This document shows, in pieces, positions 55,794 through 56,268 of a stretch of DNA of 64,000 nucleotides. Below the pieces are notes generated by a model. It worked only from the letters and a program-made list of their open reading frames with translations, had not been told where the DNA came from and did not search any database. The DNA is from Eledone cirrhosa. Its lineage: Eukaryota. Numbering within the stretch: position 1 is the stretch's first letter; every line of letters starts with the position of its first letter. Position numbers and translations under genes: made by a program. The stretch lies in NCBI GenBank assembly GCA_964016885.1, contig OZ024742.1, positions 122,946,001 through 123,010,000 on the forward strand, written 5' to 3'.

Positions 55794-56268
55794 ATACAGT
55801 GTATTGCAAAATACACTATATATACATTCATATATATATCGCTATTTCAGAGCACCAATTCTAATTATATATATCCAGCAAAAACGTAAGGTCTTCAAAA
55901 TGCTTTTAATTAAGCATACAGTGTATTGCAAAATACACTATATATACATTCATATATATATATCGCAATTTCAGAGCGCACCAATTCTAATTTTTGCTTG
56001 ACCGGCAACTGCTCTGTATAATCATTCCATGATTATTACTAGAATTCTATAAGAATCCAACATTCATAATTTTCAGCAAACAAAGGGAGTGATAAGCTCT
56101 GCGGAGTACCAACAGTACGAAACAGAGATATGTCAGCTTATCTCCCTTTGTTTGCTGAAAAAAGAAGTAAGTGACGTAGCCACTACTTTAAAACAATAGC
56201 GTAAGGTCTTCAAAATGCTTTTAATTAAGCATACAGTGTATTGCAAAATACACTATATATATATACAG

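Follow-up and report, generated by a model that had tools for sequence, protein, structure and literature searches.

Twin hairpins present in two copies within the window, the whole 64,000-nt stretch of DNA that we analyzed, are predicted to be arms of a larger pseudoknotted RNA fold of ∼145 nt that is maintained by paired changes. Both copies are parts of a tandem non-LTR retrozyme with a monomer of about 310–322 nt and a type I hammerhead. The predicted domain probably docks the reverse transcriptase (RT)/endonuclease of an autonomous Penelope-like element (PLE) and sets two copying start sites, a reading that we favor with some reserve. Our results support and extend the functional RNA module (RT recognition or stability) proposed in a preliminary description: the hairpins show covariation among subfamilies and lie in the ∼145-nt pseudoknotted domain, just 5′ of two copy-end sites.

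The repeat unit and its genomic copies

The size, content, and arrangement of the repeat identify it as a non-LTR retrozyme. Because both hairpins recur at 55900–55939, in an additional copy that had been overlooked, the repeat unit is a tandem monomer. It has a GC content of ∼0.3 and is noncoding, with no ORF of at least 150 aa overlapping copy 1 or copy 2; no terminal repeats besides the tandem monomers were seen in the retrozyme copies. That the retrozyme is itself an autonomous PLE was rejected, since the monomer carries no RT plus GIY-YIG ORF. The parts of both copies, with coordinates read by eye from the sequence, are as follows.

55794–56276 (+): copy 2 (subfamily A) as inserted; incomplete pieces precede a single full monomer, which is followed by (TA)n
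55890–55957 (+): upstream repeat with the pseudoknot 5′ strand and hairpins 1–3; 5′-truncated, without the P1 5′ strand
55964–55970 (+): predicted P1 3′ strand of copy 2, with one substitution here
55972–56016 (+): predicted P2 helix of copy 2 (55972–55977 with 56011–56016), enclosing the tail, end site E2 (∼55989), and hairpin P3
56000–56003 (+): P3 loop of copy 2, the predicted pseudoknot 3′ strand
56070–56161 (+): type I hammerhead of copy 2, with long stem I; core 56099–56105, predicted cut after 56134
56165–56188 (+): hairpin 0 of copy 2, containing the CRE-like 8-mer 56171–56178
56195–56201 (+): predicted P1 5′ strand of copy 2 (the “A-box-like” bases)
56205–56208 (+): predicted pseudoknot 5′ strand of copy 2
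56215–56232 (+): hairpin 1 of copy 2
56235–56254 (+): hairpin 2 of copy 2
56255–56276 (+): hairpin 3 (AC-rich loop) and end site E1 of copy 2, joined to the (TA)n target
28911–29230 (−): copy 1 (subfamily B, young) as inserted; a single monomer that stops at E1 in (TA)n
29016–29104 (−): type I hammerhead of copy 1; core 29074–29068 intact, minimal palindromic stem III, predicted cut after 29044
28911–28985 (−): predicted P1 5′ strand and pseudoknot 5′ strand of copy 1, with hairpins 1–3
29156–29214 (−): predicted P1 3′ strand, P2, tail, and P3 with the pseudoknot loop of copy 1

The retrozyme family with its hammerhead has >20,000 genomic copies (motif matches) in the 3.0-Gb animal assembly that we searched. 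Subfamily B, that of copy 1, is young, with 19,506 exact genome matches to its 31-mer and arrays of 310/311-nt period with one orientation flip. The older group of copy 2 (A1, A2, C, and E) gave 4,945 genome matches to a degenerate 31-mer, and the best genomic matches of copy 2 itself are at 90–92% identity. Exclusion-pattern searches yielded mostly decayed A/B/C copies and a few chance matches (30 of 84, 13 of 13 listed, 30 of 46, and 30 of 206 loci were examined), and the loci used throughout are a nonrandom sample. In metagenome and viral contigs, the family was present at 0 of 74 pattern-scan loci; one locus had one loose extra motif, and these matches are attributable to chance.

The hammerhead core and its three stems are present in all subfamilies, with a U3-A8 core variant in A2 and D. 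The minimal palindromic stem III of subfamily B would need a dimeric form for self-cleavage. Copy 2 is a dead copy: its hammerhead core has a substitution at A6 (56102), and both of its domain copies are incomplete. At A6, 97% of the aligned contig depth has a different letter; these contigs come from three runs of one sample, describe only variants within the family, and possibly depend on the assembly. No hammerhead reached the Rfam cut-off within the window, and on a relative, L008, the HH9 model scored 27 bits (E 0.00018), under the cut-off of 52.

Directly 5′ of copy 1 lies a near-perfect long inverted repeat (29270–29455, −; −108 kcal/mol, z −14.5), perhaps a small nonautonomous DNA element. 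A short GC-rich hairpin at 29500–29530 (−) is followed by a Helitron-like terminus, and the broken reading frames at 53677–55150 (+), which have no Pfam match, presumably represent a Helitron-like Rep/helicase. Another type I hammerhead element, whose stems II and III are long, is present in the window as an inverted pair (40030–40330, −; 40510–40800, +); by eye, it is not alignable with the family of copies 1 and 2.

Predicted fold and paired changes

Hairpins 1 and 2 are real in copy 2 (56215–56232 and 56235–56254) and in copy 1 (28965–28949 and 28946–28927, minus strand), and the three compensatory pairs hold as claimed, with both sides altered between the copies. The twin hairpins folded better than shuffles (z −3.7 and −3.6; 2 of 500 shuffles equally good), and under a simple model, the probability of six stem substitutions forming three complete pairs of 14 is 0.001. 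The loop of hairpin 2 differs between the copies as described, but its restriction to the GNRA and UNCG classes did not survive: subfamilies C and D use loops of neither class, and a GNRA/UNCG requirement was rejected. Beside hairpins 1 and 2 stands a third, hairpin 3, which the preliminary description had missed.

We then followed single pairs across copies. Among the first 100 of 4,945 matches, read by eye, the hairpin 1 pair was C-G in 60, U-A in 35, U.G in 5, and C.A in 0; among the first 100 of 4,712 matches, also by eye, the hairpin 2 pair was G-C in 61, A-U in 37, G.U in 2, and A.C in 0. Over 33 rows, the hairpin 3 pair was U-A in 17, C-G in 12, U.G in 3, and unpaired in 1. Hairpin 3 is imperfect in subfamilies B and D, with 7 of 32 rows unpaired at two pairs, and shows a C.A state in 9 of 100 rows, a state that the E1 junction can itself yield. 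On a tree of the monomers (IQ-TREE; 51 of 136 kept once near-identical rows were thinned), the U.G rows fall between subfamilies C and A, and each covarying pair shows only one or two changes, so that the events are few. The number of double-change pairs was not above shuffles (273, 237, and 303 of 500); paired cells and the covariation score were above all 500 shuffles, an excess that relatedness alone could produce. Two loci out of register in alignments A4/A5 (L404 and L412) were ignored.

Monomers were folded from predicted cut site to predicted cut site. In the predicted fold, P1 is formed by the A-box-like bases and a strand ∼100 nt downstream and closes a junction with hairpins 1, 2, and 3; P2, 3′ of this junction, encloses an unpaired tail and P3. 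In cut monomers of B, A, and C, the values predicted were 0.58, 0.82, and 0.34 for P1 and 0.80, 0.71, and 0.99 for P2, and hairpin 1 was weak in monomer folds of B (0.43) and C (0.15). The domain on its own gave a fold z of −2.5 to −2.9. The P1 core and P2 lack double changes within A–E because they are nearly invariant there, and only the terminal P1 pair has one (2 rows). The most conserved stretch, 55964–55983 (+), which we take to resemble a histone mRNA 3′ stem-loop, has no Rfam histone match, and its halves enter P1 and P2. No Rfam model matched the domain.

The P3 loop can pair with the four bases that immediately precede hairpin 1, and RNAalifold chose this pairing unprompted. Since both strands of the putative pseudoknot are invariant in subfamilies A–C, we searched the genome for copies altered on both strands, and the double change predicted beforehand was then found in a subfamily. 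The search, which required a nonstandard base on both strands of one pair, returned 13 matches: 10 with a Watson-Crick double change, 1 broken family copy, and 2 chance matches. Nine of the 10 belong to a new, older subfamily, D. Genome-wide, the pair is U-A in 16,728 copies, U.G in 53, C.A in 12, and C-G in 10 (odds ratio 263, counting copies and not events), and the 12 mismatched C.A copies are scattered single copies. From 25 loci selected on the 5′ side only (two pairs overlap, and one repeats a locus of the both-strand search), the 10 with a readable loop were C-G in 6 cases, U-A in 4, and discordant in 0. The helix is 95% paired in alignment A3 (U-A 20, C-G 9, and U.G 2 of 32), and the tree places the loop change at two separate points, one of which left U.G in subfamily E. 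A scan of predicted folds for loop-loop helices was set aside as uninformative, as it missed the pseudoknot in 4 of 4 families, even in A and B.

Two further families have the same predicted helix order. Family F, reached through weak domain-model matches (E 0.001–0.007), is a tandem hammerhead repeat with a 422-nt period and 23.8 copies in one locus (L417); family G is a 464-nt tandem hammerhead whose copies are nearly identical. Their loci are as follows.

L396:620–1160 (−): family F, also in L417 and L403
L080:2200–2800 (−): family G, also in L430

F and G resemble each other (68% over 209 nt), and in blastn comparisons of F/G with A/B only short pieces align. Nevertheless, their predicted folds (z −8.2 for F and −9.6 for G) contain stem I, hairpin 0, a P1 junction with hairpins and AU-rich arms, and P2 with tail and P3. 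Reading by eye, we saw a double change in the P2 of an older F variant. Also by eye, F, old F, and G all have a linker 3′ of P1 that matches the P3 loop as its complement, with letters that differ between them. One pair of this by-eye pseudoknot is broken in some F copies, and the family G linker pairs locally in the predicted fold. At L133:1350–1500 (−), a family F piece is joined to a subfamily C monomer, which suggests template switching between two retrozyme RNAs.

These patterns bear on the possibility that no structure has been selected. A young family looks conserved, and AT-rich quasi-palindromes may be perfected by template switching during copying. Such a neutral origin fits the few independent events and the scant variation of P1 and P2, and template switching is evident as inversions in the loci. 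It does not, however, lead one to expect more G.U intermediates than mismatches (7 vs. 0 in the hairpins and 53 vs. 12 in the pseudoknot), a double change between strands ∼115 nt apart, or the same helix order in unalignable families. We regard it as decidedly improbable.

The bases that the preliminary description had read as unpaired, conserved blocks of an adjoining internal promoter fit a paired structure instead. In both copies, the CRE-like 8-mer falls within a hairpin, and the partner strand of the A-box-like bases is in the next monomer. Conservation of the CRE-like block did not hold up either: in alignment A1 it occurs in 1 of 32 rows of copy 2’s group, copy 2 itself, and in 8 of 8 B rows, and across all loci the 8-mer is found in 4 of 206 A/C/E copies, 1 of 35 subfamily D copies, and 66 of 72 subfamily B copies. 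In non-B copies, the CRE-like bases form one arm of a hairpin with a variable loop (inverted repeat in 150 of 206 and 23 of 35), whereas in subfamily B they sit in a different hairpin. In the aligned contigs of the one sample, letters other than those of copy 2 make up 98% of the depth at 56176 and 99% at 56180. From the sequences compared, copy 2 has in its 8-mer a private variant of the hairpin, and a CRE/ATF site was rejected because the 8-mer is not conserved among homologous copies. A comparison of only two copies can thus mistake a private variant for a conserved promoter.

Nor did the A-box-like TAGCG..AGG fare better, as the A, B, and C monomers contain no match to the A- or B-box consensus and have two to three T4–T5 runs each; a Pol III type 2 internal promoter was rejected on these grounds. 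Base pairing explains why the block is conserved, and a compensatory change lies within the block itself. An internal promoter (Pol III A-box or Pol II CRE-type), as in schistosome and newt hammerhead repeats, nevertheless has precedents of both types in hammerhead satellites (cited in parts of PMC2220036). Moreover, the first five bases of the 8-mer are common to most subfamilies, and subfamily B, the most amplified, retains the 8-mer and could use it as a promoter. Given its rarity in the other subfamilies, the missing boxes, the internal T runs, and a block base that changes together with a partner ∼115 nt away, we find this explanation improbable.

Pseudoknots are common in IRES and ribozyme classes, and the domain could be an IRES-like element from a parental PLE, with the AUG that opens hairpin 1, or a second ribozyme. 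The AUG is retained in most rows, and the ORF start of a characterized PLE overlaps its hammerhead region (PMC11167929). However, the AUG is paired within hairpin 1, and the frame behind it shifts with a variable AT run; an ORF from this AUG was rejected. F and G are without the same start context, and no Rfam family matches the domain; we give this origin very little credence.

Copy ends and the candidate mobilizing enzyme

We examined 207 distinct contexts, of which 62 continue into the next monomer and 145 stop. Two sites account for 108 of the 145 ends: E1, in the loop of hairpin 3 (53), and E2, in the loop of P2 (55), ∼33–35 nt apart and both bracketed by the domain. The mode of E2 lies at +25 from the P1 3′ strand (25 of 55 E2 ends); E1 can be placed only to within several bases, since an AT run belonging to the monomer itself lies there. 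Both ends coincide with AT microhomologies, the insertion target at the ends is (TA)n, and an inverted 5′ piece is present in 25 of 30 loci. The two ends seen in families F and G are both in the P2 loop.

A similar arrangement has been described for PLEs. In Anolis, a PLE protein that cuts AT-rich DNA initiates at two internal positions, in an AC-rich stem-loop, and these start sites bound a 30–40-nt tail (PMC11167929). Tandem and inverted layouts and (TA)n targets of PLE copies are reported in parts of PMC8557442. The retrozyme has the corresponding features: a tail of ∼33–35 nt between two end sites, tandem copies with an inverted 5′-truncated copy, and (TA)n targets.

By analogy with other retrozymes, a multimeric transcript would be cut by its hammerheads into monomers that become circles. 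In the monomer, P1 would close the junction of hairpins 1–3, P2 would enclose the tail and P3, and the P3 loop would pair back beside hairpin 1. A borrowed PLE enzyme that binds this fold may then nick (TA)n and prime at the AC-rich loop of hairpin 3 or ∼33–35 nt farther on, in the P2 loop. Copies are observed to end at these positions, and priming there is what the ends suggest. Tandem arrays could arise from copying round the circle, and the inverted 5′ piece from a second priming event; these mechanisms are our proposal for arrangements seen directly in the loci.

A fold selected for survival or processing of the RNA would fit all of the covariation equally well. It might block nucleases at the 5′-OH end, recruit a ligase, or gate the hammerhead in the circle, with the RT starting at AU-rich single strands. 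The hammerhead in animal circles must somehow be blocked (parts of PMC7229834), and both ends do lie at AT microhomologies. Against this, three subfamilies have their ends concentrated at two set positions despite AU-rich stretches elsewhere in the monomer, and wherever an end was seen in F or G, E2 kept its position within the P2 loop. We therefore consider survival or processing unlikely as the selected role, and we prefer docking of a PLE-type enzyme.

Our search for such a partner began from four PLE-like protein queries, and several young PLE-like families with long open frames exist in the genome. In four PLE-like families, sampled at 75 loci, the domain model matched nothing convincing at the 3′ ends, and model R1, run on the 75 loci, 40 random 10-kb stretches, and the window, returned only family copies and the weak family F leads. 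PLE-like RT/GIY-YIG fragments at 1885–3577 (−), 4342–5809 (+), and 20074–21036 (−) have many genomic relatives each and are candidates for the missing autonomous partner. Pfam and PDB sequence searches gave no name to the PLE-like ORFs of the window; in the ESM Atlas, these ORFs fell in clusters with HTH_animal, GIY-YIG, and RVT_1 shares.

A piece of a very young PLE-like family lies at 11967–13560 (+), with 150 scored matches at 90–100% identity and open frames to 800 aa. The 3′ end of its family has a hammerhead-like motif and two alternative ends, and by eye a possible long-range helix brackets the first of them. Minimal-hammerhead PLE 3′ ends with a palindromic stem III occur at six loci (L013, L019, L021, L071, L100, and L105), most of them ending in (TA)n ∼50 nt later. 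Fragments at 25606–26502 (−) and 8516–9727 (−) were recognized by eye as frames of non-LTR (LINE-type) reverse transcriptase.

Comparison with known systems

The retrozyme element class is already known. Metazoan non-LTR retrozymes, as described in parts of PMC7229834, PMC7761336, and bioRxiv 10.64898/2026.07.22.740005, likewise have noncoding, low-GC monomers of ∼300 nt with a type I hammerhead, range from single monomers to long arrays, and coexist with PLEs. A review describes their repeats as being without a conserved motif indicating the mobilizing element (parts of PMC7761336). Here, in contrast, a covarying pseudoknotted domain is common to the subfamilies and, by fold order, to unalignable families, and the PLE insertion signature was counted directly. 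Xenopus retrozyme families have 21 PLE matches (parts of bioRxiv 10.64898/2026.07.22.740005), whereas no sequence link to an autonomous PLE was found in our searches.

The PLE pLTR/tail of Anolis Poseidon PAc (PMC11167929; parts of PMC8557442) resembles the retrozyme in its two start sites 30–40 nt apart, AC-rich stem-loop, AT-rich or (TA)n targets, tandem and inverted copies, and upstream hammerhead. It differs in that its binding region lies inside its ORF, whereas the retrozyme has no RT-endonuclease ORF, and the main text on PAc describes no pseudoknot (PMC11167929). Newt satellite 2 and schistosome SM-alpha hammerhead repeats are also tandem and of similar size, but they have mapped internal promoters (snRNA-type Pol II and Pol III, respectively; via parts of PMC2220036), while the block in the retrozyme is explained by RNA pairing.

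We found no literature description of such a domain, including in the pseudoknot passages of PMC7761336, PMC11722881, and PMC8557442, and the supplementary structures of PMC7229834 and PMC11167929 could bear on its novelty. For PLEs, the RNA signal has been located in a single element only, within a region of 172 nt (PMC11167929). The 145-nt domain, with natural compensatory alleles and two mapped ends, is a ready substrate for binding, probing, and start-site assays, and the family offers thousands of near-identical young copies. It bears on the question of which enzyme mobilizes animal retrozymes and what RNA feature is read.

The template/pseudoknot domain of telomerase RNA likewise places a pseudoknot and an enclosing helix by a short template, with which a repeat DNA primer pairs. 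The likeness to the retrozyme domain is an analogy of working only, and the domain has no telomerase RNA match in Rfam. PLE RTs are sister to TERT (parts of PMC8557442); unlike telomerase RNA, the retrozyme RNA is the cargo itself and not a repeat-addition template. We tentatively raise the possibility, which we consider doubtful, that animal retrozymes carry a sequence-independent, telomerase-RNA-like docking fold, made up of an enclosing helix, twin hairpins, a pseudoknot, and a short AU template, as a general signal for a clade of PLE-type RTs. If so, the fold grafted onto any RNA circle would drive multimeric (TA)n insertion and would constitute a structural RNA link between PLEs and telomerase.
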